Part shown: piece by piece, positions 9,643 to 25,011 of the stretch
Numbering within the stretch: the first letter of the stretch is position 1
How the letters are laid out: each line of letters starts with the position of its first letter
Origin: Methanofollis ethanolicus
GTDB taxonomy: Archaea; Halobacteriota; Methanomicrobia; Methanomicrobiales; Methanofollaceae
DNA length: 32,000 nt
Reading direction: 5' to 3'
Assembly: GCF_001571385.1 (NCBI RefSeq)
Contig: NZ_BCNW01000001.1
Location: 2,177,470 to 2,209,469 of the forward strand
The notes under the pieces: generated by a model
Databases searched by the model: none
What the model was told of the DNA's origin: nothing
What the model saw: the letters and a program-made list of their open reading frames with translations, nothing else
Translations under genes and position numbers: made by a program

Positions 9643-9729
9643 TCAATACCGTTTTGTCGGCGGGCATGATGTAGTATTGGGTCGGTCTGACAAAGGGATA
9701 AGAGCGAGGAGGACAAGGACGGAGGGGGG

Positions 9730-10755
9730 ATGAGAATGGCAAAAGGGGACGTCGCCATATTTATCGCGCTCCTTCTCACCGCAGGGCTCTTCTGGGCGGC
9801 CGACAGGCTCTACCCCGACCTGCTCCTGGAAAGGATCACGCTCACCGTCTTCGCCGTCGCCGTTATCTATTTCCTCCTCAGGCCCGGCGCCGAGAGGGTG
9901 CTGACCAGGGCGGTCGGGTCTGAGATGGCACGCTACTCGGTGAGGAAGGCGGTGTCCATCATTTCCCTCGTCCTGATCCTCGCGGTGGTGATCAGGATCT
10001 GGGTCGAAGACCCCCGGACCCTCCTTCTCTCGTACGGGATCATCGCCGCCGGCCTTGCCATCGCCCTCCAGGACGTCTTCAAGGACTTTGTCGGGAGCCT
10101 GGTCATCCTTGTCGCCCGGCCCTTCGGCATCGGCGACAGGGTCGAGATAGAGGGGCATGCCGGGGACGTGATCGATATCGGCCTCCTGAACACCGTGCTG
10201 ATGGAGATCGGCGGGTGGGTCTCGGGCGACCAGCCGAACGGCCGCATCACCTCTGTCCCGAACAGCGCCATCATCTCCGGGGCGGTGAGCAACTATACCC
10301 GTGACTTCACCTTCCTCTGGGACGAGGTCACGGTGCCGGTCGCCTACGGGGGCGACTGGAAGGAGGCGGCAGAGACATTTCTCGCCATCGCACGGGAGGA
10401 GACGGAAGAGGCGGTCCGTGCGGCCGGGCAGGAGATCGACCGGATCAGGCAGGAGTATTACCTCACCAGGAGGAGCGTCGAGCCGATGGCCTTCGTCGCT
10501 CTCACCGACAACTGGGTCGGGGTGACGGTCAGGTACATCGCCCCGGTGATGGAGAGGCGGGCCGTGAAGGACAGGATCAGCCGTGCGGTCCTTGCGGCGG
10601 CAGAGGCGTCGGAGAGTTTCAGGGTCGCAAGCGCCACCCTGGAGATCGGCGGGGCCCTCGCGGTCGGGTCACAACCTATATCTACCCGGATGCCGACCGG
10701 CAGGCCGGGGGAGAGAGAGGATGGACCTGGGAACCGCCGTCCCGCAGGGGAATGA
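9730..10755 (+). CDS. Mechanosensitive ion channel, MscS family
   Basis: 341 aa with N-terminal TM helices. 'GLAIALQDVFKDFVGSLVILVARPFGIGDRVEIEGHAGDVIDIGLLNT' is the MscS TM3 plus beta-domain signature. The start could be ATG 9730 or 9736, with GGAGG at 9721-9725. Confidence 0.88.
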   Translation: MRMAKGDVAIFIALLLTAGLFWAADRLYPDLLLERITLTVFAVAVIYFLLRPGAERVLTRAVGSEMARYSVRKAVSIISLVLILAVVIRIWVEDPRTLLLSYGIIAAGLAIALQDVFKDFVGSLVILVARPFGIGDRVEIEGHAGDVIDIGLLNTVLMEIGGWVSGDQPNGRITSVPNSAIISGAVSNYTRDFTFLWDEVTVPVAYGGDWKEAAETFLAIAREETEEAVRAAGQEIDRIRQEYYLTRRSVEPMAFVALTDNWVGVTVRYIAPVMERRAVKDRISRAVLAAAEASESFRVASATLEIGGALAVGSQPISTRMPTGRPGEREDGPGNRRPAGE

Positions 10756-12742
10756 AAGGCTGGAGAGAGAGATGGACGGGCTGGAGGGGGAGGCCGCCTA
10801 TGCGGAGACGGCCTATGCCCTGCCGGTGAGTTATGCCCTGACGGGTCTCCGGGTGGCGACGGCCGACGGGGCGCGGAAGGCGTACCTGGCGTCGGGGAAA
10901 AACCCGCTCGTTGCCGCGGAGTGCGTCCGGGCGTTTGTCGGCGGCGGTGTTGAGGAGGCGCCGTACACCGGATTCCTCGGCGACACCGAACTGCGGCGTC
11001 TCGGCTATTCCCTGGTGGACGGGAGCATCCTCGGCCTCGCCCTCCTTGTCGGGACGCCGGAAAACGCCGACGCCGCCGCGGCGGTCTGCCGGGAACTGCA
11101 GGAGACGTACATGCTCACCTTTCTTGCCGGCGGGGTGACGGAGGTGCTCACGGCGGCGGGCGTGAAGGTGGGGCCGGGCTACCGCCTCATCCCCCTCGGG
11201 CCGGGCGGGATGGCGGCCGTCCACGTCGCCGACGTCCTCGCACGGGTGGCGATGATGTTCGGCGGGGTGCAGGCCGGCGACGCCGGACGTCTCCTCGCCT
11301 ATGCACGGGAGAGGGCGAAGGCCTTCGTCGTCGCCTTCCCCGGCCTTTCGGAGGAGGAGGTGGCGGTCCTCGACGCCCTCAGGCCGCTCGGCGTCCCTGT
11401 CCTCTCTGTCGGCGGCTACGAAGGGGGCGAGTGGGTGCCGGTCGGGGCCGACGAGGCGGTCGGCCGCGGCAGAGACCTGCGGGAGATCAGGGTGAAGGTG
11501 ACGGCGATCCCGATCCCGATGGCCTGCTCCCCGGCCTTCGAGGGGAAGAGCATCAGGAAAGAGGAGATGCACGTCGAGTTCGGCGGCGGGCGGACCCCGG
11601 CCTTCGAACTCCTCCGGATGCGGCCGGCCGCGGAAGTGGAGGACGGGAAGGTGACGGTGACCGGGCCGGAGGCCGACGCCGTCGCCGAGGGGTCGGCCCT
11701 CCCCCTCGCCATCATCGTGGACGTCGCCGGGAAGAGGATGAAGAAGGAGTACGAACCGGTGCTGGAGAGGCGGGTCCACACCTTCCTCAACTACGGCGAG
11801 GGGTCCTGGCACGTCGCCCAGCGCGACCTCATCTGGGTCCGCCTCTCGAAGGAGGCGGTGGCGAAGGGTGTGCGGGTGCGCCACCTCGGCACCCTCCTTG
11901 CCGGTCGGTTCAGGGCCGACTTCCCCGACCTCATCGACGCCGTGGCGGTGACCCTGATCACCGACGGGGACGCCGTCCGCGCCGCCCGCACCGGGGCCGA
12001 GGAGGTCTACCGGCAGAGGGACGAGCGGATCGCGGGGATGAAGGACGAGGACGCCGCCCTCTTCTACTCCTGCACCCTCTGCCAGACCTTCGCCCCGAAC
12101 CATGTCTGCGTCATCACGCCCGAGCGCCCGGCCCTCTGCGGGGCGATCACCTGGCTGGACGCCCAGATCGCCCACGAGATCGCACCGGCGGGCGCGAACC
12201 AGCCCGTGGAGAAGGGGGAGGTCGTCGACGACCTCACGGGCGAGTTCGCCGGGGTGAACAGGTTCGTGAAGAAGGCCTCGCACGGGACGGTGGAGAGGGT
12301 CTGCCTGTACGGGATGATGGAGTACCCGATGACGGCCTGCGGGTGTTTCGAGGCGGTGGCGGCGGTGCTCCCGGAGACGAACGGGGTGGTGATCGTCACC
12401 AGGGAGTACAGGGGCGAGACGCCCCTCGGCATGACCTTCTCCACCCTGGCCGGGACGATCGGCGGCGGGGCACAGACGCCGGGTTTCCTCGGGATCTCCA
12501 GGAACTATATCCTCTCGGACCGCTTCCTCAGGGCCGAGGGGGGTATCGCACGGGTGGTCTGGATGCCCTCCCAACTGAAGGAGGAACTGGGGGAGAGACT
12601 GCGGGGGGTGCTCGCCGCACGCGGCATGCCCGACCTCTTCGAGAGGATCGCGGACGAGAGGACGGCGACGACCCTGGAGGACCTCGTCGCCTTCCTGGAG
12701 ACACACGGCCACCCGGCACTGGAGATGGACCCGATCATCTGA
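10721..12742 (+). CDS. acsB: Acetyl-CoA synthase catalytic subunit (A-cluster), bacterial AcsB-type with N-terminal domain
   Basis: 673 aa from ATG 10721, with a purine-rich gggggagagagagagg run directly upstream; the ORF opens at 10583. 'SCTLCQTFAPNHVCVITPERPALCGAITWLDA' supplies the [4Fe-4S] Cys ligands and 'TACGCFE' is the Cys-Gly-Cys Ni-Ni site. C-terminus 'HGHPALEMDPII'. The N-terminal ~260 aa ('YAETAYALPVSYALTG', 'YTGFLGDTELRRLGYSLVD') resemble the N-terminal domain of Moorella-type AcsB as I recall it. Confidence 0.93.
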   Translation: MDLGTAVPQGNERLEREMDGLEGEAAYAETAYALPVSYALTGLRVATADGARKAYLASGKNPLVAAECVRAFVGGGVEEAPYTGFLGDTELRRLGYSLVDGSILGLALLVGTPENADAAAAVCRELQETYMLTFLAGGVTEVLTAAGVKVGPGYRLIPLGPGGMAAVHVADVLARVAMMFGGVQAGDAGRLLAYARERAKAFVVAFPGLSEEEVAVLDALRPLGVPVLSVGGYEGGEWVPVGADEAVGRGRDLREIRVKVTAIPIPMACSPAFEGKSIRKEEMHVEFGGGRTPAFELLRMRPAAEVEDGKVTVTGPEADAVAEGSALPLAIIVDVAGKRMKKEYEPVLERRVHTFLNYGEGSWHVAQRDLIWVRLSKEAVAKGVRVRHLGTLLAGRFRADFPDLIDAVAVTLITDGDAVRAARTGAEEVYRQRDERIAGMKDEDAALFYSCTLCQTFAPNHVCVITPERPALCGAITWLDAQIAHEIAPAGANQPVEKGEVVDDLTGEFAGVNRFVKKASHGTVERVCLYGMMEYPMTACGCFEAVAAVLPETNGVVIVTREYRGETPLGMTFSTLAGTIGGGAQTPGFLGISRNYILSDRFLRAEGGIARVVWMPSQLKEELGERLRGVLAARGMPDLFERIADERTATTLEDLVAFLETHGHPALEMDPII

Positions 12743-12754
12743 GGGGAGGGACGA

Positions 12755-13672
12755 ATGACAGAGAGGATCACCGAGGTGGCAATCGGCGCCACCAGGGCTG
12801 AAGGAGGGACGAGGACGAGGTCGTACAGGGTCGGTGGGGCGTCGGCCCTCCCCGACATGGGCGACGCGGGGGCGAGGCCTCTTGTCGCCCTGGAGATCTG
12901 CGACGACCCGGCCCTCTGGCCGGCGGTCGTGCTGGACGAGGTCGGTGACCTCGCTGGCGACCTCGCCGGGTGGGCGAAGGCCGCGGAGGAGAGGTGGGGT
13001 GCCGACCTGGTCCGCCTCGTGCTGACGAGCACGCGGCGGCGGGGTTTCGACGACCCCGCGTCGGCAGGGAGAGCGGTCGAGGAGGTGCTCGCCGCCACAG
13101 GACTCCCCCTCATCGTCGAAGGGAGCATCGATCCCGCCCTGGACACCGGGGTCTTCAGGCGGTGCGGGGAGGCGGGCGAGGGGGAGAGACTCCTTCTCGG
13201 CACGGCCGAGGCCGAGAGGTACCGCTCGGTCGCGGCCGCCGCCCTTGCCTACGGCCACGCCGTCGTCGCCCAGACCCCGATCGACATCAATCTCGCAAAA
13301 CAGCTGAACATCCTCCTGCGGGAGACGGGGGTGCCGCACGACCGGATCGTCATCGACCCGTACACTGGCGCCCTGGGCTACGGCTTCGAGTACTCCTACT
13401 CGGTGATGGAGCGGGTCCGCACCGCCGCCCTCGCGGGCGACGCCGACCTTGCGATGCCGATGATCAGCGCCGCACAGGACTCCCTCACGGTGAAGGAGGT
13501 GCGGGAGGCCCCTGAGGAGGAGAGGGCGGAGACCGCCGTGCAGTGGGAGTTCTATGCCGCCTTCGCCGCGGCGGTGGCAGGCGCCGGGATCGTCTGCGTC
13601 CGCCACCCCCGCACCGTCGGGGTGCTCAGAGAGGCGATCGCCGACCTGTGGGGGGGAGAGGGATGGCGATGA
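12755..13672 (+). CDS. acsD: Corrinoid iron-sulfur protein small subunit (AcsD / CdhD-like, short bacterial-size form)
   Basis: 305 aa. 'INLAKQLNILLRETGVPHDRIVIDPYTGALGYGFEYSYSVMERVR' matches the TIM-barrel delta/small subunit. A GGGGAGGG run lies a few nt upstream of the ATG. Confidence 0.9.
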   Translation: MTERITEVAIGATRAEGGTRTRSYRVGGASALPDMGDAGARPLVALEICDDPALWPAVVLDEVGDLAGDLAGWAKAAEERWGADLVRLVLTSTRRRGFDDPASAGRAVEEVLAATGLPLIVEGSIDPALDTGVFRRCGEAGEGERLLLGTAEAERYRSVAAAALAYGHAVVAQTPIDINLAKQLNILLRETGVPHDRIVIDPYTGALGYGFEYSYSVMERVRTAALAGDADLAMPMISAAQDSLTVKEVREAPEEERAETAVQWEFYAAFAAAVAGAGIVCVRHPRTVGVLREAIADLWGGEGWR

Positions 13673-14988
13673 AGGCGCTCGAGGTCTACAAACTCCTGCC
13701 GAAGACCAACTGCAAGGAGTGCGGGTTCCCGACCTGCCTCGCCTTCGCGATGAAACTCGCCGCCGGGGGCGTCGAACCCGAACGCTGCCCGTACCTCGAC
13801 GAGGAGACGAAGGCCCTCCTCGGCGGGGCGACCAGGCCGCCGGTGCGAGCGGCGACGGTCGGCGTCGGCGCCCGCTCCTTCACCGTCGGAGAGGAGATCG
13901 TGATGTACAGGCACGAGAAGACCTTCTACCACCGTCCCGGCATCATGGTCTGCGCCGGCGACACCTCGCCGCTGGAAGGGATCAGGGCGACCGCCGGGGA
14001 GGTCCGCGACCTCGTCGTCCACCGGGTCGGGCAGGACCTGACCCTCGACGGCATCGCGATACGGTGCGAGAGCGGGGACCCGGACCGCTTTGCCGCGGCC
14101 TCCATGGCCGTCGGGGAGTGCGGCGACCTCCCCCGTCTCCTCATCGCGGCAGACCCCGACGCCCACGCGGCGGCCCTCCGGGTCTGCGGCCAGTTCCTGC
14201 CCCTCATCCACGCCGCGACCGCGGAGAACCACGCGGAGATGGCGGCCCTCGCGAAGCGCTACGGGTGCCCCCTCGTCGTGCGGGCGGAAACCCCGGAGGA
14301 ACTCGCCGACCTCGCCGCGGCATGCACCGCCGCCGGCGCCAGGTCCATCCTCCTGGACCCCGCCCCGCGGACGATGGGGGACTTCGTGGCGCGGGCATCG
14401 CACCTGCGGGAGCACGCGGTGACGAGGGCGTCGCCCGACCTCGGGTATCCCCTCTATCTCGACACCGTGACCCTCGGCACCGACGCAGCGCTCGCCGCCG
14501 GCATCCTCAGGTACGCCGGGGTCATCGCCGTCCCGCCCCTGCCGCGGCCCTCCCTCCTCGCCGCCCTCACCCTCCGCCAGAACATCTACACCGACCCGCA
14601 GAAGCCCATCCAGGTGACGCCCGGCATCTACCCGGTGAACAATCCGGGCAGGGACGCACCCGTCCTCCTCTCGGTGAACTTCTCCCTCACCTACTTCACC
14701 CTCCTCGGCTACCTGGAGGCCGGGAAGGTCCCCTGCTATCTCTTTGTCGTGGACACCGCGGGACTCTCCGTCTTGACGGCGGTCGCCGGCGGGAAACTCG
14801 ACGAAGACGTGGTGAAAAAGTCGATCGAGGCCATGGGCCTCGCCGGGACCGTGGACCACCGCACCATCGTCATCCCCGGCTACGCGGCACCCCTCTCCGG
14901 GAGGATAGAGGAGGCGACAGGGTGGAAGGTGCGTGTCGGGCCGCGCGACGCCGCGGAGATCGCAGAGTTCCTGGAGAAGGAGGGGTAG
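13663..14988 (+). CDS. acsC: Corrinoid iron-sulfur protein large subunit (AcsC / CdhE gamma)
   Basis: 441 aa from 'MAMKALEVYKLLPKTNCKECGFPTCLAFAMKLAAGGVEPERCPY', which carries the Cx2Cx4Cx16C [4Fe-4S] motif. The start overlaps the acsD stop; ATG 13669, in an ATGA overlap, is an alternative. Confidence 0.92.
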   Translation: MAMKALEVYKLLPKTNCKECGFPTCLAFAMKLAAGGVEPERCPYLDEETKALLGGATRPPVRAATVGVGARSFTVGEEIVMYRHEKTFYHRPGIMVCAGDTSPLEGIRATAGEVRDLVVHRVGQDLTLDGIAIRCESGDPDRFAAASMAVGECGDLPRLLIAADPDAHAAALRVCGQFLPLIHAATAENHAEMAALAKRYGCPLVVRAETPEELADLAAACTAAGARSILLDPAPRTMGDFVARASHLREHAVTRASPDLGYPLYLDTVTLGTDAALAAGILRYAGVIAVPPLPRPSLLAALTLRQNIYTDPQKPIQVTPGIYPVNNPGRDAPVLLSVNFSLTYFTLLGYLEAGKVPCYLFVVDTAGLSVLTAVAGGKLDEDVVKKSIEAMGLAGTVDHRTIVIPGYAAPLSGRIEEATGWKVRVGPRDAAEIAEFLEKEG

Positions 14989-16905
14989 ATGCCGGTCGTT
15001 ACCTTCCTGCCGGGTTATCGGAAGGCCCGGGTCCCGCAGGGCGCCACTGTCCTGGAGGCGGCGCAGAAGGCCGGCCTCGTGATGAACGTCGTCTGCGGCG
15101 GGCAGGGGAAGTGCGGCAAGTGCATCGTCCGCGTCGAGAGCGGGGAGACGACCTTCGACCGGGAGAAGTTCGGCGTCCTTTTTGCGGCCGCGGAACTGGA
15201 TGCGGGCGCCTGTCTCGCCTGCCAGACCCGCGTCTTCAGCGACGCCCGCATCGAGGTCCCGGCGCGGACATTGGTGCAGGAGCAGAAGATCCTGGTCGAC
15301 GCCCGACCCCTCGACGTCCCCCTCCACCCGTCGGTGCGGAAGTACGCCCTCGCTCTCTCGCCGCCGACTCTCGACGACCCCTCCTCAGACCTCGCACGTT
15401 TGCTCGACGGGGTGGAGAACACCGGAGGACCTGCGGCGGCGAAGGTCTACGCGCCCCTGGACGTGCTCAGGAAGATCCCTATCGTCCTCCGCCACGGCAG
15501 GTGGCGGTGCACGGCGACGGTCGCCCTGGTGCCCGGCGGGTACCGCCTGATCAACGTAGAGGAGGGGGACACGGCGGCGCGGCTGTACGGGGCGGCGGTG
15601 GACCTCGGGACGACGACGGTCGTCGCCTACCTCTGGGACCTCGCCGGGGGCCGCGTCCTCTCGACGGCCTCGAACTACAACAGGCAGATCTCCTGCGGCG
15701 AGGACATCCTCTCCCGCGTGAACTATGCGAAGAAGAACGGCACCGGCCACCTCCAGGAGCTCGCCGCGGTGAGCATCAACACCGCCCTCACCGCGGCGGC
15801 CGACGCCGCAGGGATCGACCTGGAGGACATCTACGAGGTGATGGTCGCCGGGAACACGGTGATGACCCACCTCCTCCTCGGCATCGACCCGGCCTACATG
15901 ATCGCCGAACCGTACGTCCCTGTCGTCAGGCGGACGTTCTCGACGACGGGGCAGCGCCTCGGCCTCTCCGTCGCCCCGACGGCCGGGGTCTTCACCTTCC
16001 CCGCGGTCTCGAACTTCATCGGCGGCGACATCGTCGCCGACATCCTCACCTCGGGGATGGCCGATGAGGACGAGGTCTCCCTCCTCATCGACATCGGCAC
16101 CAACTTCGAGGCGGTCCTCGGCGGGCGGGACTGGATGCTCGCCTGCGCCGGGGCGGCCGGACCGGCCCTGGAGGGCGGGGAGGTGCTCTTCGGGATGCGG
16201 GCGAACCCGGGGGCGATCGAGAGGGTGCGGATCGACGAGGCGACCCTCGAACCCGCCTTCGAGACGATCAACGAAGTCCCGCCCGTCGGTATCTGCGGGT
16301 CGGGTCTGATCGACCTCCTCGCGGGCCTGATCCGCGCCTGCGTCATCGACAGGACAGGGCAGATCAACACCGCCATCGACCACCCGCGGATACGCATGGG
16401 CCGCCATTTCCCCGAGTACGTCGTCGCATGGGAGAAAGAGAGCGGGGCGGGGAAAGATATCGTGATCACCGGGCACGACATCAGGAACCTGATCCTGAGC
16501 AAGGCGGCGGTGCTGGCGGCCTGCATCACCCTGATGGACGCGGCAGGCATCGCCCACGACGACCTCGCCACCGTCTTCTTCTCCGGGGCCTTCGGGAACT
16601 ATATCGACAAGGAGAACGCCGTCACCATCGGCCTCATCCCGGAGGTGCCCCTGGAGAGGGTGCGGAACCTGGGGAACGGGGCGGTCACCGGGGCGAACCA
16701 GGCCCTCGTCAGTCGGGAGAGGAGGAATGCCCTCGACCGGATCGCACGGACGATCACCTATATCGAACTGAACGCTGACCCGGGGTTCATGGACAGGTAC
16801 ACGCAGAGTTGTTTCCTCCCGCACACCGACCTCTCCCTCTTCCCGACGGTGCAGAAAGTCCTCGACGAGTGCAGACTGCGGAGAGGGGCGCAATGGCAGG
16901 GGTGA
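14989..16905 (+). CDS. RACo-type reductive activase of corrinoid proteins (N-terminal plant-type 2Fe-2S ferredoxin + ASKHA ATPase, COG3894/DUF4445-like)
   Basis: 638 aa. N-terminal 'CGGQGKCGKC...CLACQ' is a 2Fe-2S ferredoxin motif. 'VDLGTTTVVA', 'VAGNTVMTHLLLG', 'IDIGTNFE', 'GAAGPALEGG' and 'GICGSGLIDL' match ASKHA activase motifs. The ATG immediately follows the acsC stop. Confidence 0.88.
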   Translation: MPVVTFLPGYRKARVPQGATVLEAAQKAGLVMNVVCGGQGKCGKCIVRVESGETTFDREKFGVLFAAAELDAGACLACQTRVFSDARIEVPARTLVQEQKILVDARPLDVPLHPSVRKYALALSPPTLDDPSSDLARLLDGVENTGGPAAAKVYAPLDVLRKIPIVLRHGRWRCTATVALVPGGYRLINVEEGDTAARLYGAAVDLGTTTVVAYLWDLAGGRVLSTASNYNRQISCGEDILSRVNYAKKNGTGHLQELAAVSINTALTAAADAAGIDLEDIYEVMVAGNTVMTHLLLGIDPAYMIAEPYVPVVRRTFSTTGQRLGLSVAPTAGVFTFPAVSNFIGGDIVADILTSGMADEDEVSLLIDIGTNFEAVLGGRDWMLACAGAAGPALEGGEVLFGMRANPGAIERVRIDEATLEPAFETINEVPPVGICGSGLIDLLAGLIRACVIDRTGQINTAIDHPRIRMGRHFPEYVVAWEKESGAGKDIVITGHDIRNLILSKAAVLAACITLMDAAGIAHDDLATVFFSGAFGNYIDKENAVTIGLIPEVPLERVRNLGNGAVTGANQALVSRERRNALDRIARTITYIELNADPGFMDRYTQSCFLPHTDLSLFPTVQKVLDECRLRRGAQWQG

Positions 16906-17915
16906 TCCCCGCGGCGGGCCTGCGGGCGACCGGGGTCGGCGCCCTGCCGCACCGCGACCCGGACGCCGCATGCCGGGCGGTCCTCGCCGCATTCCCCGAG
17001 GTGCCGTACGCCCCGACCCTCCCGAACAGGAACCCCCTGGAAGCGATCGTCCTCGCGGAGGCCGGGTGTCTGCCCGGCGCGGAGGTCCGCGACGGGAAAG
17101 TGGTCGTCGACACGGGTGCCGACGAAGCGATGGAAAGGGTCTTCATGGACTACCTGGAGGGGCGGTATGCCGGGTACGCCGCGTCGGCGGCCACGGCCTC
17201 GGGTTTCCACCGCCTGATGACATACGACCTCTCCGGCGCCGTCCTCCTGAAGTGCCAGGTCACCGGCCCGGCGACTCTCGGGATGCAGGCGGTGGACAGA
17301 GGTCGGCGGCCCGTCCACTATGACGGGGCGTACGCCGACGTTCTCGGGAAGGCGCTCGCCCTGCGGGCGCGGTGGTCCGAGGCACGGATGCGGGAGCACG
17401 GGGTGCCGACCGTCGTGGTGCTGAACGAGCCCTACCTCACCGCCCTGGGGTCGCCTGTCGTCCCCCTGGACGAGGAGACGGTCAGTTCCTCCTTCGCCGA
17501 CATCGCCGCCCTCCTCGACGGGGGCATCGGTATCCACTGCTGCGCGAACACGGACTGGGGCTTCGTCTTCTCCCTCTCCCCGTCCCTCGTCTCCTTCGAC
17601 GCCCACGCCCATGCCCGCGAGTTCCTCCTGTACGGGGACGACCTTGCGGCGTACCTCGAAGGGGGCGGGGTCGTGGCATGGGGGATGATACCGGCCGACA
17701 GGCCTGCCCCTGACGCTGCGGAACTCGGCCGCATCCACGAGCGCTTCGCCGCGATCAGGCGGGCGGTGGAGGATCTGGTCGGCGACGAGACCTTTGTCGA
17801 CCGCTCCCTGGTCACGCCGACCTGCGGGATCAGGGCAACGGACGAGGCCGGGGCAGGGGCGGTCATGGCGGCGGCGGCGGCGGTCGCGAGACGGGCGCGG
17901 GGTGAGAGAACATGA
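16893..17915 (+). CDS. MetE C-terminal / URO-D-like TIM-barrel protein, probable Zn-dependent methyltransferase (not AcsE-like)
   Basis: 340 aa. 'ATGVGALPHRDP' near the N-terminus, 'GIHCCANTDW' (His-x-Cys) and 'VTPTCGI' (distal Cys) resemble the zinc/thiol-activating motifs of cobalamin-independent methionine synthase and MtaA-type enzymes. GGAGAGGGG lies upstream. 13-nt overlap with the RACo gene and an ATGA overlap with cooC. The family call is by motif only. Confidence 0.55.
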   Translation: MAGVIPAAGLRATGVGALPHRDPDAACRAVLAAFPEVPYAPTLPNRNPLEAIVLAEAGCLPGAEVRDGKVVVDTGADEAMERVFMDYLEGRYAGYAASAATASGFHRLMTYDLSGAVLLKCQVTGPATLGMQAVDRGRRPVHYDGAYADVLGKALALRARWSEARMREHGVPTVVVLNEPYLTALGSPVVPLDEETVSSSFADIAALLDGGIGIHCCANTDWGFVFSLSPSLVSFDAHAHAREFLLYGDDLAAYLEGGGVVAWGMIPADRPAPDAAELGRIHERFAAIRRAVEDLVGDETFVDRSLVTPTCGIRATDEAGAGAVMAAAAAVARRARGERT

Positions 17916-18670
17916 AGCCCTGCACCGTGGCGGTCGCCGGGAAAGGGGGGACAGGGAAGACGACGATCGCCGCCCTCCTGGTGGACGCCCTCGTCGCCGC
18001 CGGCGTGCGCCCTGTCCTCGCGGTGGACGCGGACCCGAACGCCAACCTCCACGAGGCGATGGGGGTCGCCGTCGACGAAACTCTCGGCACGATGCGGGAG
18101 GAGGCGTTCACCCGCGGCATCCCGCCGGGGATGGACAGGCGGGCCTACATCGGTTACCGCTTCAGGAAGGTGCTCGTCGAGGCCGGGGGCTTCGACCTCC
18201 TGGCGATGGGGAGGCCTGAAGGGACGGGGTGCTACTGTTTCGCAAACGACCTCCTCCGCGAGTGCGTCGACTCGCTGGTGCAGGACTACAGGTGCGTGGT
18301 CGTCGATGCCGAGGCCGGGATGGAGCACGTCTCCCGCGGCACCGTCGGGGCGCCCGACGTCCTCCTCGTCGTCTCCGATCCCTCGGCCCGCGGCCTGCGG
18401 ACTGCCCTGCGGATCCGGGACCTCGCCGTCTCCCTCGGCCTTGACGAGGGGCGGATCTTCCTTGTCGTCAACCGCTCGAAAGGGGAGGCGGTGGCGGACG
18501 TACCTCTCCCCCTCGCCGCCGTGGTCCCGTACGACCCGGCAGTCGAGGAGGCCGACGTCGCGGGCCGCCCGGTCATCTCCGTCCCGCCGGGGAGTCCGGC
18601 GAGGGCGGCGGTGGAGGGGCTTCGCCGGTGGGTGATATCCTATACTGCTGTCCGGCCTCCCTCCAGATAG
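17912..18670 (+). CDS. cooC: CooC/AcsF-type Ni-insertion accessory ATPase
   Basis: 252 aa. Deviant Walker A 'AGKGGTGKTT', 'GCYCF' CxC metal-binding motif and 'VVVDAEAGMEH'. Confidence 0.9.
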   Translation: MKPCTVAVAGKGGTGKTTIAALLVDALVAAGVRPVLAVDADPNANLHEAMGVAVDETLGTMREEAFTRGIPPGMDRRAYIGYRFRKVLVEAGGFDLLAMGRPEGTGCYCFANDLLRECVDSLVQDYRCVVVDAEAGMEHVSRGTVGAPDVLLVVSDPSARGLRTALRIRDLAVSLGLDEGRIFLVVNRSKGEAVADVPLPLAAVVPYDPAVEEADVAGRPVISVPPGSPARAAVEGLRRWVISYTAVRPPSR

Positions 18671-18703
18671 GGAAGAGATGAGAGAGATTTCAAAATAACG
18701 GAT

Positions 18704-19060
18704 GAGCATATCCCGGAAATCTCATCCACTCCCCCCATCTCTGCATGCAGGGATCGGGAGAAAAGATCCTGATCGGGTCGATGTCTTCCCGAATTCCCTG
18801 AAGAATCGTGCGAAACCACCGCCTTCCCCTACCTTTCTGCCGGGGGACTGACGCCCCCGGACCCCTTAAACAGGATAGGGTCGGGGAAGAGAGACCGGAG
18901 ATCCTGATGAAGGAGATTGCCATCCGCCCCCCATCGCAATGATGGGGGGACCGGGGGGTGAAACCCCCCGGAACAGACACGAGATCAGGATTTTTTCAGA
19001 ACCAGATACCGATCATTCCATCGACAGGACAGAGGGCATGATCACTTTTGGGATGACCTC
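18704..19060 (+). repeat. Composite intergenic element, copy B (complete, without insertions)
   Basis: Colinear with 21213-21719. Module order: left module with ctgcatgcag palindrome; G5ACT hairpin 18840-18860; 'caggatagggtcggggaagagagaccggagatcctgatgaagga'; hairpin 1 18927-18949; hairpin 2 18951-18971; right module ending tgggatgacctc. Confidence 0.85.
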
Positions 19061-19160
19061 GATCTGTAGAATCGGGCATGAGTCCCCGGGGACTCAGGCA
19101 TACGCGATGAAAATTGTTCTTTGTGGTCTGCTGGTCAACGTGCCTTCCTTTACGCTCGCG

Positions 19161-19205
19161 CCGGGGGACTACCTCGAAGACCTTCGGTCTTCTCGTTGCC
19201 CCCAG
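19161..19205 (+). repeat. 'Filled' G5ACT...C5 hairpin carrying a GAAGACC-ttc-GGTCTTC unit
   Basis: The sequence is ccgggggactacctcGAAGACCttcGGTCTTCtcgttgccccc. It has the same flanks as the empty site at 18840-18860. Confidence 0.75.
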
Positions 19206-19480
19206 ACCCCCGCAGTGCGATAGGGCCAGGAAGGCAGATGCGGAGATTCCATCTTTGAAAGGAGATGTTCGATGAAAATCAGAGTCCCGTGCATCCCCGG
19301 CATGAGGGGTCGGTGAGATCACATCCTCACACAAACCCGGAGAGTCGTTCCTCGGGATCATTTTCAGGGTAAATCCTTTGGATTACTCTCTTTGAGGGGT
19401 TGGCCGCCCTCGAGTCAGGACCGAGCAGGAGACAGAAATACTCTCATTCGATCTTCGATATGGCCTTCCCGGCCCAATCC

Positions 19481-19512
19481 TATGATGGGGGTCCGGGGGT
19501 CGCAACCCCCGG
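19481..19512 (+). repeat. Diverged copy of hairpin-2 module
   Basis: 'tatgatgggggtCCGGGGGTcgcaACCCCCGG' parallels 'caatgatggggggaCCGGGGGGTgaaACCCCCCGG'. Confidence 0.7.
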
Positions 19513-19605
19513 CGCGAAGATAGGGGAAGGCGAGTGATCAGAGGAGCACTCTAACAAAAGCAGGAGAGTTTGGCTTTGTAGAAACTCTCATGATGTATCT
19601 TTGTG

Positions 19606-19626
19606 CCGGGGGCTGGCCGCCCCCGG
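19606..19626 (+). repeat. 'Empty' G5...C5 hairpin
   Basis: The sequence is ccgggggctggccgcccccgg followed by 'acccc', like 18840-18865 (ccgggggactgacgcccccggacccc). Confidence 0.7.
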
Positions 19627-19823
19627 ACCCCGGCCATTAGGAGAGGCGGAGGATGGCAAAACCCTCTCTGGACCTCCTGTTCGCTCTTGTCGGGACAGGA
19701 CCCTTAAGGATCCGGGAGGTGAACCTGGCGGTCAGAGGAGGACGGGCACGGAGCACTGACCATGAAATATGAATGCCTGCGCCAGTGTCCCGCAGCAAGG
19801 ATCCGCCACCCCGACGCACACCC

Positions 19824-19831
19824 CTTTTATC
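19824..19831 (+). promoter_or_regulatory. Putative TATA box of purB (leaderless mRNA)
   Basis: cTTTTATc is centred ~27 nt upstream of ATG 19855. No Shine-Dalgarno-like sequence lies in between. Confidence 0.4.
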
Positions 19832-19854
19832 GCCAGGCGTCCACACTATTCCCC

Positions 19855-21195
19855 ATGGCGATCCACCCGATAGACTACCGGTACGGCACTCCGGAGATGA
19901 AGGCCGTCTGGGGCGAAGAGAACCGGTTCAGGTGCATAGTGGCGGCGGAGGTCGCGCTCGCGCAGGCCGAGGCGGCGTGCGGCGTCATCCCGGCCGACGC
20001 CGCGGCGACGATCAAGGAGTGCGCGGGGAAGGCAACCCTCGCGCGGGCGAACGAGATCGAGGCCGAGATCAACCACGACATGATGGCCGTCGTCAAGGCC
20101 GTCACCGAGGTCTGCGGCGACGCCGGGCGCTGGATCCACTTCGGCGCCACCTCGAACGACATGCTGGACACCGCCACCGGCCTCCAGATGAAGGCGGCGA
20201 TGGACCTGATCGAGGAGAAACTCCAGCGGCTCCTCGCGGTCCTCCTCCGCCGCGCCGGGGAGACGAAGAACCTCGTCTGCGTGGCCCGCACCCACGGCCA
20301 GCACGGCGTGCCGACGACGTACGGCCTGCGGTTTGCGATCTGGGCGAGCGAGGTGGGGCGGCACATCGAGCGCCTCCGCGAGATGCGGCCCAGAGTTGCG
20401 GTCGGTCAACTCACCGGCGCCGTCGGGACGCAGGCGGCCCTGGGCATGAAGGGGCTTGAGGTCCAGCCCGCGATGATGGAGTACCTCGGACTCACCGCAG
20501 TCGACGTCTCGAACCAGGTGATCGCCCGCGACCGGTACGCGGAGTACGTCCTCTTCCTGGCGAACATGGCAACGACCCTGGACAAGATCGGGGTCGAGGT
20601 CCGCTCCCTCCAGAGGACAGAGATCGCCGAGGTCGAGGAGGCCTTCGGCAAGAACCAGGTCGGGTCCTCGACGATGCCCCACAAGAGGAACCCGATCAAG
20701 AGCGAGCAGGTCTGCGGCCTCGCCCGTATCGTCCGCTCGATGGTCGAACCCGCCCTCCAGGACAACACCCTCTGGGACGAGCGCGACCTCACCAACTCCT
20801 CCTGCGAGAGGGTGGTCTTCCCCGAGGCCTCGGTCCTTGCGGACCACATCCTCAATGTGATGACCCGCGTCCTCGACCGCCTGAACATCAGGGAAGAGAA
20901 CATCAGGAAGAACCTCGACCTCCTCCACGGCGTGAACCTGGCCGAGTCGGTGATGATCGAACTGACGAAGAGGGGGATGGGCAGGCAGGACGCCCACGAG
21001 GCCGTCCGCGTGGCGAGCATGACCGCCCTCGCGGAGAAGAGGAGCATCGCCGGCGTCCTCGAAGAGGACCCGAAGGTCGCGGCCGTCCTCTCCTCCGAGG
21101 AGATCGCCGTCCTTCTCAACCCGGACAACTACATCGGCACCGCGGTCGAGCAGGTCGACCTGGTCATTGCAAAACTCAGGCCCCTCTCGGCCTGA
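19855..21195 (+). CDS. purB: Adenylosuccinate lyase
   Basis: 446 aa from 'MAIHPIDYRYGTPEMKAVWGEENRF'. Fumarate-lyase signature 'GSSTMPHKRNP'. The ORF opens at 19762, but the upstream residues are not PurB-like. Confidence 0.93.
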   Translation: MAIHPIDYRYGTPEMKAVWGEENRFRCIVAAEVALAQAEAACGVIPADAAATIKECAGKATLARANEIEAEINHDMMAVVKAVTEVCGDAGRWIHFGATSNDMLDTATGLQMKAAMDLIEEKLQRLLAVLLRRAGETKNLVCVARTHGQHGVPTTYGLRFAIWASEVGRHIERLREMRPRVAVGQLTGAVGTQAALGMKGLEVQPAMMEYLGLTAVDVSNQVIARDRYAEYVLFLANMATTLDKIGVEVRSLQRTEIAEVEEAFGKNQVGSSTMPHKRNPIKSEQVCGLARIVRSMVEPALQDNTLWDERDLTNSSCERVVFPEASVLADHILNVMTRVLDRLNIREENIRKNLDLLHGVNLAESVMIELTKRGMGRQDAHEAVRVASMTALAEKRSIAGVLEEDPKVAAVLSSEEIAVLLNPDNYIGTAVEQVDLVIAKLRPLSA

Positions 21196-21738: not shown

Positions 21739-24708
21739 TTATCCCAGCCTCCCCCTGAGGAGGAGGGCGGCACCGGCCGCGAGGACGGCAAGCCCGAAGG
21801 GGAGGGGGCTCTGCTGCGGGGTGGTCGTCGCCGCGGCGGCGGGGGTCGTGACCGGGAGTGCGGTCGCGGTCCCGGTCGGCGTCACGGTCATGGTCGCCGT
21901 CGGCGCGGGTCCGGACTCCCCGGCCCCGATCGCGAAGAGGGAGAAACCGGGGCTCTCGGCGGTGAAGGAGTAGCCGTACGCGTCCTCGCCGACGATACGG
22001 GTCGGGAGGGCGTGCCAGGCGTCGTCGTGGTACCGGTAGAGCACGACGTCCTCAGGCGCGAAGCCCCTCGCGTCCAGCCATGCCTTCGGGACGGTGAAGT
22101 TCAGGGACGCACCCGCGAGGGCGGCGTCCGTGGCGCGGTAGAGAGTCACCTCGTCGTACTCAAAGACCGCACCTGCCGGGGCGTCGACGCCCGAGGGCAG
22201 GCTTCCCTTCTCCACGGTGAGGAGGACTTCAGGGATATGCTCCCCGGCCGTCACGCCGACCTCATAGATCGCGGAGTTCCTGATGCCGAAGGAGGCGTGG
22301 CCGCCTGCCGGGATGTTGCTCGCCGTACCGGCAGAGACGTCGGAGCGACCGCCGCCGGAACCGCCTGAACTGGGGGTCGGCACGGTCTGGAGGGCGAAGG
22401 AAAGGGGCGTGTTCGGGCCCTCGACGACCGTCACCGTCTGTTCGGCCGGGGTCACGTAGCCTGCGAGGGAGACGGTGATCGTGTGGACGCCGGGCGGGAG
22501 GTAGAGGGCGGCGTCCGTGGTGCGGTCGATCGCCACGCCGTCCAGGTGGACGGACGCACCGGTGGGCGTCGATGAGACCTGCACCGTCCCGCCGTACACC
22601 AGCGGGAGGGCGTCGGTGCCGAAGCCCGTGATGTTCAGCGGTTCGTCGCAGATGCCGTCGAAGTCGGCGTCCGCACCCCACTCCGAGATGTTCTGGGCGG
22701 GGTCATTCAGCCAGAGGTTGCCGCCGAGGTACGGCCCGCCCGCGATGTTCGTGCCGGCAGTGCGGGTGGCGTTCAGGACGGCGTCGGATTCCTCTGCATA
22801 GATGTTGGTGGGGTTGTCGAAGCGGCAGTTGGTGATGACGGCACCGGCGGACCTGTCGAAGAATGCACCGCCGCCGTTCATTGCCGTGTTGTTCGTGAAG
22901 GTCATGTCCGTCAGTCTGGCATTGGCGGACCAGAGGAAGAACGCACCGCCGCCGTTCATTGCCGTGTTGTTCGTGAAGGTCGTGCCCGTCAGGGCGGCAT
23001 TGTCAGACCAGAGGAAGAACGCACCGCCGCCGTCGTTCGTTGCCGTGTTGTCCTCAAAGGTCGTGTCTGTCAGGGTGACATTGAAGGAACTGTAGAAATA
23101 CGCACCGCCACCGCCATTTGCCGTGTTGTCCTCAAAGGTCGTGTCCGTCAGGGCGGCATTGTCGGACAGGAGGAAGAACGCACCGCCACCGCCACTTGCC
23201 GTGTTGTTCTCAAAGGTCGTGTCTGTCAGGGTGGCATCGGCGGAAGTGTCGAAGTACGCACCGCCGCCGCCAGCGTTTGCCGTGTTGTTCGCAAAGGTCG
23301 TGCCCGTCAGGGCGGCATTGGCGGAATCAGCGAACCACACACCGCCACCATAATATGTTGCCGTGTTGTTCGCAAAGGCCGTGTCTGTCAGGGTGGCATT
23401 GTCGGAACCTCGGAAGAACGCACCGCCGCCGAAGTTCGTTGCCGTGTTGTCCTCAAAGGTCGTGCCCGTCAGGGTGGCATCGGCGGAAGTGTCGAAGAAC
23501 GCACCGCCGCCGTACGATGTTGCCGTGTTGTTCGTGAAGGTCGTGCCCGCCAGGGCGGCACTGGAGGAACCGGTGAAGTACGCACCGCCGCCGTCGTTGT
23601 TTGCCGTGTTGTTCGCAAAGGCCGTGTCTGTCAGGGTGGCACCGGCGGACCTGTCGAAGTACGCACCGCCGCCGTACGATGTTGCCGTGTTGTTCGCAAA
23701 GGCCGTGTCTGTCAGGGTGGCATTGTCGGAGGTCTGGAAATACGCACCGCCGCCGTACGATGTTGCCGTGTTGTTCGTGAAGGTCGCGTTTGTCAGGGCG
23801 GCATCGGCGGAAGCTTCGAAGTACGCACCGCCACCGCCGCCCGCTGCTGCCGTGTTGTTCGTGAAGGTCGCGCCCGCCAGGGCGGCATTGGGGGAATCAG
23901 CGAAGTACGCACCGCCACCGTTCATTGCCGTGTTGTTCGCAAAGGTCGTGCCCGTCAGGGCGGCACCGGAGGAACCGGTGAAGTACGCACCGCCGCCGTT
24001 GTTCGTTACCGTGTTGTTCGTGAAGGTCGTGCCCGTCAGTCTGGCACCGGAGGAACAGGAGAAATACGCACCGCCGCCGCCGTTCGGTGCCGTGTTGTTC
24101 GTGAAGGTCGTGTCCGTCAGGGCGACATTGGCGGAATCATGGAAACACGCACCGCCGCCAGAGTTTGCCGTGTTGCCGGTGAACGCCGTCCTCTCGACCA
24201 GGAGGTGGTCGACGCTCTCGGCATAGAGCGCACCGCCGAAACCAGGGCCCCCGTTCCCGACAAAGGTGCAGTCGGCGATGGTGAGGCCCTGAATCCCGGC
24301 GGCGTTGATCCCGGCGCCGCCACCAGAGATCAACGTGTTCCTGGAGATGTTAAGGCCGCGGAAGGTGGCGTTGTCCGCGGTGACGGTGAACGCCCGGGCA
24401 GTACCGGAGATGAGGGGTTGGGCGGGCGACCCGTCCCAGCGCGTGACCGTCACATCCGGTGCGGCGATGGTGATCCCGCCCTCGTACACCTGGCCCTCCA
24501 CGCCCCAGATGCGGATCGTGTCGCCGGCGCCGATCTCCGGGATATCCAGAAGACCGGTGAGGTTCTCCGCCCCCGCCACCACGGAAATATTCCAGGTGTG
24601 AGGGTGGTCGATCGCCGCGGAAGCGGCCGCGGGGAGGAGGAGACATCCCGCAAGAAGGCACAGCACTGCGAGTCTGGCCATACTGTCGTGCATATGATCT
24701 GCAATCAT
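21739..24708 (-). CDS. Large secreted surface protein: signal peptide, Pmp-like parallel beta-helix repeats, PEGA-like domain, PGF-pre-PGF-like domain, Thr-rich linker, PGF-type C-terminal anchor
   Basis: Start is set at 'MIADHMHDSMARLAVLCLLAGCLLLPAAASAA' (24708) by alignment with the paralog's RBS-preceded start; the ORF opens at 24783 inside the AT-rich promoter. Dozens of ~27-aa 'TFxNNTA...GGGAYF' (FxxN + GGA) repeats. 'VQVSSTPTGASVHLDG' is PEGA-like. 'ESPGFSLFAIGA...TTTPQQSPLPFGLAVLAAGAALLLRGRLG' is the C-terminal sorting signal. Confidence 0.85.
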   Translation of the reverse strand: MIADHMHDSMARLAVLCLLAGCLLLPAAASAAIDHPHTWNISVVAGAENLTGLLDIPEIGAGDTIRIWGVEGQVYEGGITIAAPDVTVTRWDGSPAQPLISGTARAFTVTADNATFRGLNISRNTLISGGGAGINAAGIQGLTIADCTFVGNGGPGFGGALYAESVDHLLVERTAFTGNTANSGGGACFHDSANVALTDTTFTNNTAPNGGGGAYFSCSSGARLTGTTFTNNTVTNNGGGAYFTGSSGAALTGTTFANNTAMNGGGAYFADSPNAALAGATFTNNTAAAGGGGGAYFEASADAALTNATFTNNTATSYGGGAYFQTSDNATLTDTAFANNTATSYGGGAYFDRSAGATLTDTAFANNTANNDGGGAYFTGSSSAALAGTTFTNNTATSYGGGAFFDTSADATLTGTTFEDNTATNFGGGAFFRGSDNATLTDTAFANNTATYYGGGVWFADSANAALTGTTFANNTANAGGGGAYFDTSADATLTDTTFENNTASGGGGAFFLLSDNAALTDTTFEDNTANGGGGAYFYSSFNVTLTDTTFEDNTATNDGGGAFFLWSDNAALTGTTFTNNTAMNGGGAFFLWSANARLTDMTFTNNTAMNGGGAFFDRSAGAVITNCRFDNPTNIYAEESDAVLNATRTAGTNIAGGPYLGGNLWLNDPAQNISEWGADADFDGICDEPLNITGFGTDALPLVYGGTVQVSSTPTGASVHLDGVAIDRTTDAALYLPPGVHTITVSLAGYVTPAEQTVTVVEGPNTPLSFALQTVPTPSSGGSGGGRSDVSAGTASNIPAGGHASFGIRNSAIYEVGVTAGEHIPEVLLTVEKGSLPSGVDAPAGAVFEYDEVTLYRATDAALAGASLNFTVPKAWLDARGFAPEDVVLYRYHDDAWHALPTRIVGEDAYGYSFTAESPGFSLFAIGAGESGPAPTATMTVTPTGTATALPVTTPAAAATTTPQQSPLPFGLAVLAAGAALLLRGRLG

Positions 24709-24745
24709 AATCCTTCGCATCGTCCCGCCCATTCTTTTACGGGCA

Positions 24746-24775
24746 CAAACTGATTTTTTTATAATGATCAGTTTG
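24746..24775 (-). promoter_or_regulatory. Promoter of surface-protein gene 1: TATA box (minus strand cattataaaaaaa) bracketed by a perfect 9-bp inverted repeat
   Basis: caaactgat (24746-24754) and atcagtttg (24767-24775) flank ttttttataatg. The site lies ~50 nt upstream of ATG 24708. Confidence 0.5.
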
Positions 24776-25011
24776 TATATCAAATCTGCGAAGTAAAAAT
24801 CATAATATGTGAGAACTGATATCTGCCCATTCGTGCAGGCCGGTTCCGGGGGGGCATGTGCGGGTTTTCTCTTTCATCCGGGAGAGGGGCGGACCGGACG
24901 AGGCGCCGGAGGCCTCGGAGACGGCGCGCACAGTGAAGACACCGCCATACCTGCATCGAAAAGGACGTATCATACCGAAAATTCGGTTCAGGAGTGATTC
25001 TCCAGATCCAG

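Follow-up and report, generated by a model that had tools for sequence, protein, structure and literature searches.

Which methyl donor and which methyl acceptor are served by a zinc methyltransferase encoded in the midst of an archaeal acs operon? The question is raised by a 32,000-nucleotide stretch of the Methanofollis ethanolicus genome (contig NZ_BCNW01000001.1; hereafter the window), in which an open reading frame (ORF) whose product is currently annotated as 'hypothetical' is the fifth gene of six in a tightly packed operon, the members of which overlap or are closely spaced. The other five genes encode acetyl-CoA synthase (AcsB), the small and large subunits of the corrinoid iron–sulfur protein (CoFeSP; AcsD and AcsC), the reductive activator of CoFeSP (RACo, also AcsV) and a CooC-type ATPase, just as an earlier interpretation made from the DNA letters alone (the sequence-only reading) had described them. 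That reading placed the ORF where AcsE, the methyl-tetrahydrofolate (methyl-THF):CoFeSP methyltransferase, would be expected, and offered two roles for the product: a non-orthologous replacement of AcsE or a methyltransferase acting from methyl-CoFeSP to a thiol. Here, homology and a predicted fold assign the protein to the MesB/core-MetE family of zinc-dependent methyltransferases.

The characterized member of this family, CbdbA481 (core-MetE) of Dehalococcoides mccartyi, transfers the methyl group of methylcobalamin, and not that of methyl-THF, to homocysteine, and its zinc ligands are His215, Cys217, Asp236 and Cys312 (Deobald 2020, PMC7005905). AcsCD, that is CoFeSP, has been proposed as the methyl donor in vivo (Deobald 2020, PMC7005905; Price 2021, PMC7857596). 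The family has been named MesB; it is confined to genomes that encode AcsC and AcsD, and in methanogens mesB lies in an operon with acsC and acsD (Price 2021, PMC7857596). Among 12 Methanomicrobiales proteomes, MesB was found in six and a further methionine synthase, MesA, in all 12 (Price 2021, PMC7857596). The gene in the window is an unannotated member of MesB, and the arrangement in which CoFeSP serves a MesB of the same operon is already in print as a prediction; since both studies had proposed the CoFeSP–MesB connection, the claim of the sequence-only reading that such a link would be poorly described was overstated.

Reading frame, family and fold of the protein

The ORF encodes 340 amino acids without internal stops, and its ATG at 16893 is preceded by a purine-rich GGAGAGGGG stretch; homologues share the same aligned start methionine. 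The stop codon of RACo (TGA, 16903–16905) creates a 13 nt overlap with the start of the ORF, and the stop of the ORF and the start of cooC have a common ATGA at 17912–17915, so that the overlaps with both neighbours are as the sequence-only reading described. At 65% G+C, long ORFs on the opposite strand of the window are expected noise, and conservation settles the reading on the forward strand. The nearest relatives of the protein are found in Methanofollis (92% identity), Methanoculleus (~58%) and Methanoregula/Methanoregulaceae (~51%). In an alignment of 40 sequences of this Methanomicrobiales clade, most of which are only 50–60% identical to the window protein, 68 columns are invariant, including all of the zinc ligands and the HCC-N-TDW motif.

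Profile searches returned little. Scans of the window protein and 40 clade members against Pfam and NCBIfam (E ≤ 10) gave nothing useful, including no match to the AcsE/pterin-binding (PF00809), URO-D (PF01208) or PF01717/TIGR01371 models; the NCBIfam methionine synthase models PRK00957 and PRK04326 did not match the window protein and weakly matched two other family members. Searches of PDB sequences by phmmer and hmmsearch, with the protein or its profile, produced chance matches or none. MesB proteins in general match no Pfam model; the lack of a PF01717 match thus characterizes the family and is no evidence against membership.

The AlphaFold2 model, computed with 40 homologues, is confident (mean predicted local distance difference test score, pLDDT, of 91.6; predicted TM-score, pTM, of 0.91) and consists of one (βα)8 barrel. 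In a Foldseek search of the PDB the 18 best matches are all cobalamin-independent methionine synthases (MetE; E of ~1e-7 to 2.5e-6), with chains of 712–768 residues from Candida, Thermotoga, Neurospora, Streptococcus and Arabidopsis, a query TM-score of ~0.6 (maximum ~0.63) and a target TM-score of ~0.3. They are followed by generic TIM barrels at E > 3e-4, and no URO-D, MtaA or AcsE/MeTr structure is among the 50 matches listed. Of the description 'MetE/URO-D-like' in the sequence-only reading, the MetE part is therefore supported and the URO-D/MtaA part is not, while its remark that the protein is unlike AcsE agrees with both the profile and the structure searches.

The clade profile, searched against 1.84 billion representative proteins, matched 2061 representatives at E ≤ 1e-3, and the 150 best listed are mostly of ~330–360 amino acids; named members are called 'methionine synthase II (cobalamin-independent)' in Deferrimicrobium-like bacteria and Methanomassiliicoccales. 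Similarity of at least 130 bits, at ~29% identity, to the D. mccartyi enzyme was the measure used to define MesB (Price 2021, PMC7857596). Against a Dehalococcoidales orthologue named methionine synthase by NCBI, taken as a stand-in for CbdbA481 itself, the window protein scores 196 bits at 30% identity in an end-to-end alignment of 338 columns. The ligands of the orthologue are by alignment His215, Cys217, Asp236 and Cys312; those of the window protein are His215, Cys217, Asp236 and Cys311, which do not vary among 121 clade sequences and occur in 137–138 of 139 sequences of the wider family. The two motifs pointed out in the sequence-only reading, 'IHCCANTDW' (His215, Cys216 and Cys217) and 'TPTCGI' (Cys311), are both present; they do not vary across the 121 clade representatives and hardly do so across the 139 from the wider family. 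It is because of the end-to-end homology, the matching zinc ligands, the MetE fold of the model and the family-wide lack of Pfam matches that we regard the protein as a MesB/core-MetE zinc-dependent methyltransferase, and the expectation that fold and family searches would lead to a methyltransferase family is thereby confirmed.

Like CbdbA481, the protein comprises a single barrel of ~340 residues resembling the C-terminal barrel of MetE, has no folate domain and occurs in genomes with AcsB, AcsC and AcsD. The C-terminal barrel of canonical MetE (Escherichia coli, Thermotoga maritima and Candida albicans) is its best structural match and has the motifs G-x-x-P, [ILV]-x-E-P, H-x-C and P-x-C-G in common with it; however, the window protein is half the size, lacks the N-terminal barrel responsible for the methyl-folate cleft, has Asp in place of the zinc ligand Glu665, is ~13% identical and, as stated, has no PF01717 match. 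MesA, the Methanothermobacter methylcobalamin:homocysteine methyltransferase with MtrA as its predicted donor, is likewise a core methionine synthase of methanogens with a corrinoid methyl donor, but belongs to a separate family (<30% identity) that is present even in those Methanomicrobiales genomes without Wood–Ljungdahl genes (Price 2021, PMC7857596). A 'hypothetical' protein that is invisible to Pfam and NCBIfam thus merits renaming as a MesB-family protein.

The conserved cassette and its remodelled methyltransferase

Of the best 80 genome loci surveyed, 32 are from Methanomicrobiales, and all of these have the order acsB-acsD-acsC-acsV-mesB-cooC wherever the contig is long enough; the linkage to acsC and acsD, on which the sequence-only reading had made its proposal depend, is accordingly kept in related genomes. 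ORF clustering over the loci identified the six-gene cassette as the only conserved unit, with no conserved neighbour beyond it, and at the loci examined neither a carbon monoxide dehydrogenase (CODH) nor AcsE is encoded within 8–10 kb. The same holds for the window, where no CODH catalytic subunit (AcsA/CdhA/CooS) and no AcsE was found in the operon or among the scanned ORFs. Such an acs set, devoid of CODH and AcsE, resembles the 'incomplete Wood–Ljungdahl' set of Dehalococcoides. On the chromosome of Methanoculleus taiwanensis (locus L081) the cassette stands between the same helicase–MscS and purB flanks, with CorA and DUF2115 genes in addition and without CODH within 10 kb; the shared flanks indicate that its chromosomal position is stable in this lineage.

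Outside the order, the 80 best loci are mostly from Dehalococcoidia, Anaerolineae and other Chloroflexota, with a few from Methanomassiliicoccales and other metagenome-assembled genomes. The identical six-gene order recurs in a Deferrimicrobiaceae bacterium (L069, 1852–10437), where it is followed by a DUF166 (PF02593) gene and where AcsB is 46% identical to that of the window, suggesting that the cassette may move between domains as a unit; its origin may lie in a transfer from bacteria. The order is also identical in an uncultured archaeon (L060, CAZEQQ010000023.1), in which genes for HcyBio (PF01837, 465 bits, plus a ferredoxin domain), a 237-residue protein without assignment and aspartate-semialdehyde dehydrogenase lie directly 3′ of the cassette (9817–12992). 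These downstream genes belong to the archaeal pathway of homocysteine biosynthesis, and together with the cassette they would make up an apparent methionine route that draws on aspartate semialdehyde, on sulfide and on the acetyl-CoA methyl group. The homocysteine genes beside the cassette give strong contextual support to methionine formation by canonical acs-linked MesB. In Methanomassiliicoccales, mesB-cooC adjoins divergently oriented acsCDB, whereas the mesB genes of Dehalococcoidia and other Chloroflexota are without acs linkage in the loci surveyed. In two Dehalococcoidales loci (L073, 7101–7964; L046, 7112–7975) a 287-residue ORF lies immediately 5′ of canonical mesB; that of L073 matches the PNP_UDP_1 phosphorylase family (methylthioadenosine phosphorylase-like), a context of methionine salvage and not of acs. 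Some Methanoregula-type loci (L003, 4768–5760; L007, 2835–4268) have inserts of 1.4–3.4 kb between acsC and acsV, which encode a thioredoxin/GILT-like protein of 330 residues or ORFs without a Pfam match.

The protein departs from its family at positions associated with homocysteine. In MetE, Ser433 binds the carboxylate and Asp599 the amino group of homocysteine; both are 'mostly conserved' in MesB, with residues 15 and 177 as the counterparts in the D. mccartyi protein (Price 2021, PMC7857596). Residues equivalent to Ser433 and Asp599 count among the marks of MesB, and the window protein has Ala17 and Asn178 in their place. The equivalences follow from motifs on the E. coli MetE sequence (TIG-S-FPQ versus GVG-A-LPH in the window protein for Ser433, and QI-D-EPAL versus VL-N-EPYL for Asp599); an hhalign comparison of the family profile to E. 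coli MetE's C-terminal half paired the C-terminal Cys motif only, and the other equivalences were mapped by motif.

When 121 cluster representatives from Methanomicrobiales are set against 139 from the remainder of the family (Table 1), further states specific to the clade are M52I, G121C and the loss of Trp from the WPQLP motif, together with an Arg/Lys242–Glu243 pair adjoining the zinc ligand Asp236 (89 and 100% of the clade versus 12 and 4% elsewhere). An equivalence of Gln42 of the family with MetE Glu484 was considered and rejected, as the spacing speaks against it and Glu484 is placed near MesB Trp69 by Price 2021 (PMC7857596). In the AlphaFold2 model, residues 215–217, 236 and 311 are at or just past the C-terminal ends of predicted β-strands, one strand terminates at residue 178, and residue 17 is assigned as strand on its own, placements in keeping with a TIM barrel's catalytic face.

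In the tree, the Methanomicrobiales MesB proteins form a monophyletic clade on a long branch, within which the change is stepwise: Methanospirillum-like basal members (L026, L027 and L032) have Thr42 and Glu243 yet retain Ser17 and Asp178, both of which are gone in Methanoregula, Methanolinea, Methanoculleus and Methanofollis. Since L060, L069 and Methanomassiliicoccales, which lie outside the order but are acs-linked, keep the canonical residues, the change is not a mere correlate of operon linkage. The loss of homocysteine-binding residues from Methanomicrobiales MesB appears to be undiscussed in the published text; judged from these sequences, the thiol acceptor of these proteins may differ from homocysteine.

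Methyl donor, methyl acceptor and direction of the reaction

We lean, if only slightly, towards a MesB-type enzyme that moves the methyl group from the methyl-CoFeSP of its own operon to a thiol, with homocysteine as the default acceptor. AcsB would split acetyl-CoA, methylate the Co(I) of AcsCD and free CO and CoA, as proposed for D. mccartyi; the zinc ion held by His215, Cys217, Asp236 and Cys311 would deprotonate the thiol, which would attack the methyl-Co(III) corrinoid of CoFeSP, encoded in part by acsC two genes upstream, to yield methionine if the thiol is homocysteine. RACo would re-reduce oxidized corrinoid, Co(II), and CooC presumably matures the nickel site, so that acsB-acsD-acsC-RACo-mesB-cooC would constitute a self-contained module from which MesB strips the methyl group. 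Of the two roles offered by the sequence-only reading, transfer from methyl-CoFeSP to a thiol is thus the better supported, by the MesB family and by the conserved acs operon.

What the sequences show is the family, the MetE-type zinc motif and the conservation of the operon; CoFeSP as the physiological donor, cleavage as the direction and homocysteine as the acceptor are three steps that we infer, and homocysteine is the weakest of them because two positions that bind it are altered in the clade. That neither CODH nor AcsE is present agrees with cleavage as the direction, and so does Methanospirillum hungatei, which requires acetate despite carrying this cluster and for which the role of the cluster has been called undefined (PMC4704411); a literature search on CODH in Methanomicrobiales and on the M. 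hungatei cluster found nothing beyond this genome paper. Should the standard interpretation hold, the operon would be one more example of a shortcut by which methionine is made from CoFeSP without folate, an idea first put forward for Dehalococcoides, and a concrete function would be at hand for the CODH-less acetyl-CoA synthase cluster of acetate-dependent Methanomicrobiales.

Several points weigh against methionine formation from CoFeSP. Positions 17 and 178 are Ala/Gly and Asn/Ser in ~97% of the clade versus Ser in 91% and Asp in 94% elsewhere, and a third family-conserved polar residue, Gln42, is Thr in the window protein. MesA is present in each of the 12 Methanomicrobiales proteomes (PMC7857596), which makes a further methionine synthase seem superfluous. 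For any MesB, methyl transfer from CoFeSP is a prediction; the CO that would be released on cleavage has no accounted-for fate; and the similarity to the D. mccartyi enzyme is measured through a proxy from Dehalococcoidales.

The same observations lead to the rival that deserves to be taken seriously, because MesA is present in all proteomes analysed and conservation extends to the new residues: the chemistry and the methyl-CoFeSP donor would be retained, and the thiol would have been switched in the clade to coenzyme M (CoM), coenzyme B, sulfide or methanethiol, mercaptopropionate or another non-amino-acid thiol. We hold this to be possible but tentative. The four zinc ligands stay invariant while S17A (96%), Q42T (94%), D178N/S (97%) and G121C have become established and Arg/Lys242 and Glu243 have been gained, in a monophyletic clade on a long branch; the conservation of the new states argues against simple decay. 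The reasoning has precedents in Price 2021 (PMC7857596), where lost residues together with a second synthase cast doubt on the function of MSBL-1 MesC, and where Chloroflexales MesB-like proteins were given another function owing to lost residues and an absent pathway. If the acceptor were CoM, the enzyme would be a functional analogue of the URO-D-type methylcobamide:CoM methyltransferases MtaA, MtbA and MtsA, in which a zinc-activated thiol likewise attacks a methyl-corrinoid protein, although the window protein belongs elsewhere by both profile (no PF01208 match) and structure (none of them among the 50 Foldseek matches listed); the methyl group of acetyl-CoA would then be linked to methyl-CoM, in either direction, without tetrahydromethanopterin (H4MPT) or Mtr. 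However, Asn can still hydrogen-bond the amino group of homocysteine, the basal L026, L027 and L032, whose operon is the same, retain Ser17 and Asp178, and position 178 varies within the clade (Asn, Ser, Thr, Asp and Gly) in a manner partly resembling relaxation. From known methanogen bioenergetics, moreover, a catabolic or high-flux route from acetate to methyl-CoM appears energetically implausible without CODH and Mtr, transfer from methyl-CoM to the corrinoid would be uphill, and any specific alternative thiol is a candidate only. Somewhat less likely again is the fuller proposition that Methanomicrobiales MesB has been retuned to a non-homocysteine thiol, with CoM as the obvious candidate, and that the CODH-less cassette forms a direct bridge independent of H4MPT and Mtr between the acetyl-CoA methyl group and the methanogenic thiol pool. 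Were the CoM version true, it could account for the retention of an 'acetyl-CoA synthase' of undefined role by hydrogenotrophic methanogens that require acetate. The replacement of homocysteine residues in a clade that already carries MesA is the sole element here that could go beyond the ordinary, and may reflect the repurposing of an enzyme in methanogens.

Two other explanations fare much worse. That the protein has ceased to be a methionine synthase or a catalyst acting on small thiols, and is instead a structural or regulatory partner of CoFeSP or acts on a protein cysteine, would account for the changed substrate-binding residues and for the apparent redundancy with MesA; it is improbable in view of the 68 invariant columns among the 40 clade sequences, with the HCC-N-TDW motif and every zinc ligand among them, and of an operon position strictly kept in more than 30 species-level genomes. 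Even less credible is the role of a non-orthologous AcsE replacement moving methyl groups between methyl-H4MPT and CoFeSP and letting the cluster make acetyl-CoA. The cassette does lack AcsE or any other methyltransferase, the protein takes up the methyltransferase slot and would, like AcsE, dock on CoFeSP, and AcsD is short and bacterial-like (305 residues) where the N-terminal region of archaeal CdhD would add length. But AcsE is a DHPS-like pterin-binding barrel without a zinc–thiolate site and has no sequence or fold match to the window protein, which has no pterin-binding domain and no Pfam match, and an invariant His/Cys/Asp/Cys zinc site signifies thiol activation, needless for pterin-to-cobalt transfer. 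The characterized homologue CbdbA481 rejects methyl-THF, the core motifs of the family are the same in bacteria that use THF and in archaea that use H4MPT, and the cassette is without CODH in organisms such as M. hungatei that still need acetate (PMC4704411). The sequence-only reading was right that the protein is unlike AcsE, but its AcsE-replacement proposal is unsupported, and the premise that an AcsE should be expected need not hold in an archaeon, since archaeal CoFeSP reportedly takes the methyl group from the pterin by itself, with no separate methyltransferase (PMC13370988).

Features and surroundings of the operon

Table 1. Genes of the acs–mesB operon and diagnostic codons of the mesB-like gene (window coordinates)
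Feature	Position	Strand	Evidence or remark
acsB, acetyl-CoA synthase (A-cluster subunit), long bacterial type	10721–12742	+	NCBIfam NF040764, 867 bits; Pfam CdhC and ACS_CODH_B_C; start chosen from homologue length and an upstream sequence resembling a ribosome-binding site
acsD, CoFeSP small subunit	12755–13672	+	Pfam CdhD; NCBIfam NF003376, 333 bits, above cut-off
acsC, CoFeSP large subunit (4Fe-4S domain and corrinoid-binding part)	13663–14988	+	Pfam FeS and CdhD; start chosen from homologue length
acsV/RACo, ATP-dependent CoFeSP reductive activator	14989–16905	+	Pfam Fer2, RACo_linker, Raco_middle and RACo_C_ter; best NCBIfam match AcsV, 553 bits, under the 800-bit cut-off
mesB-like gene	16893–17915	+	340-residue single-domain (βα)8 zinc methyltransferase, MesB/core-MetE family
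Codon of Ala17, MetE Ser433 position	16941–16943	+	Ala in 116/121 of clade; Ser in 127/139 others
Codon of Thr42	17016–17018	+	Thr in 94% of clade; Gln in 91% of others (WPQLP)
Codon of Asn178, MetE Asp599 position	17424–17426	+	Asn 100 and Ser 17 of 121 in clade; Asp in 131/139 others
Codons of His215-Cys216-Cys217, H-x-C zinc motif (E. coli MetE His641/Cys643)	17535–17543	+	Invariant; motif compared with E. coli MetE sequence
Codon of Asp236, third zinc ligand (MetE Glu665; Asp236 in CbdbA481)	17598–17600	+	Invariant; numbering of Deobald 2020
Codon of Cys311, distal zinc ligand (MetE Cys726)	17823–17825	+	Invariant; paired by hhalign with 'VNPDCGLKT' of E. coli MetE
cooC/acsF-type P-loop ATPase, presumed nickel-insertion factor	17912–18670	+	Pfam CbiA/AAA_31; directly 3′ of mesB in 34 loci

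The operon is set among housekeeping genes and others: an XPD-like helicase (reverse strand) and an MscS channel (forward strand) are encoded upstream and purB lies downstream (flanks 7633–10755 and 19762–21195). The gap of ~1.1 kb between cooC and purB (18671–19761) has a sole ORF of 94 residues (18939–19223) without a Pfam match; its counterpart in M. taiwanensis contains a 114-residue fragment resembling an S-adenosylmethionine (SAM)-dependent methyltransferase. An Rfam scan for SAM and cobalamin riboswitches in the window and eight related loci returned rRNA only. Further downstream, on the reverse strand, two very large ORFs of 1014 and 1852 residues (21739–24783 and 25025–30583) contain right-handed β-helix/NosD repeats, Chlamydia-PMP repeats, PEGA and at least seven PKD domains, and probably encode surface or S-layer-associated proteins.

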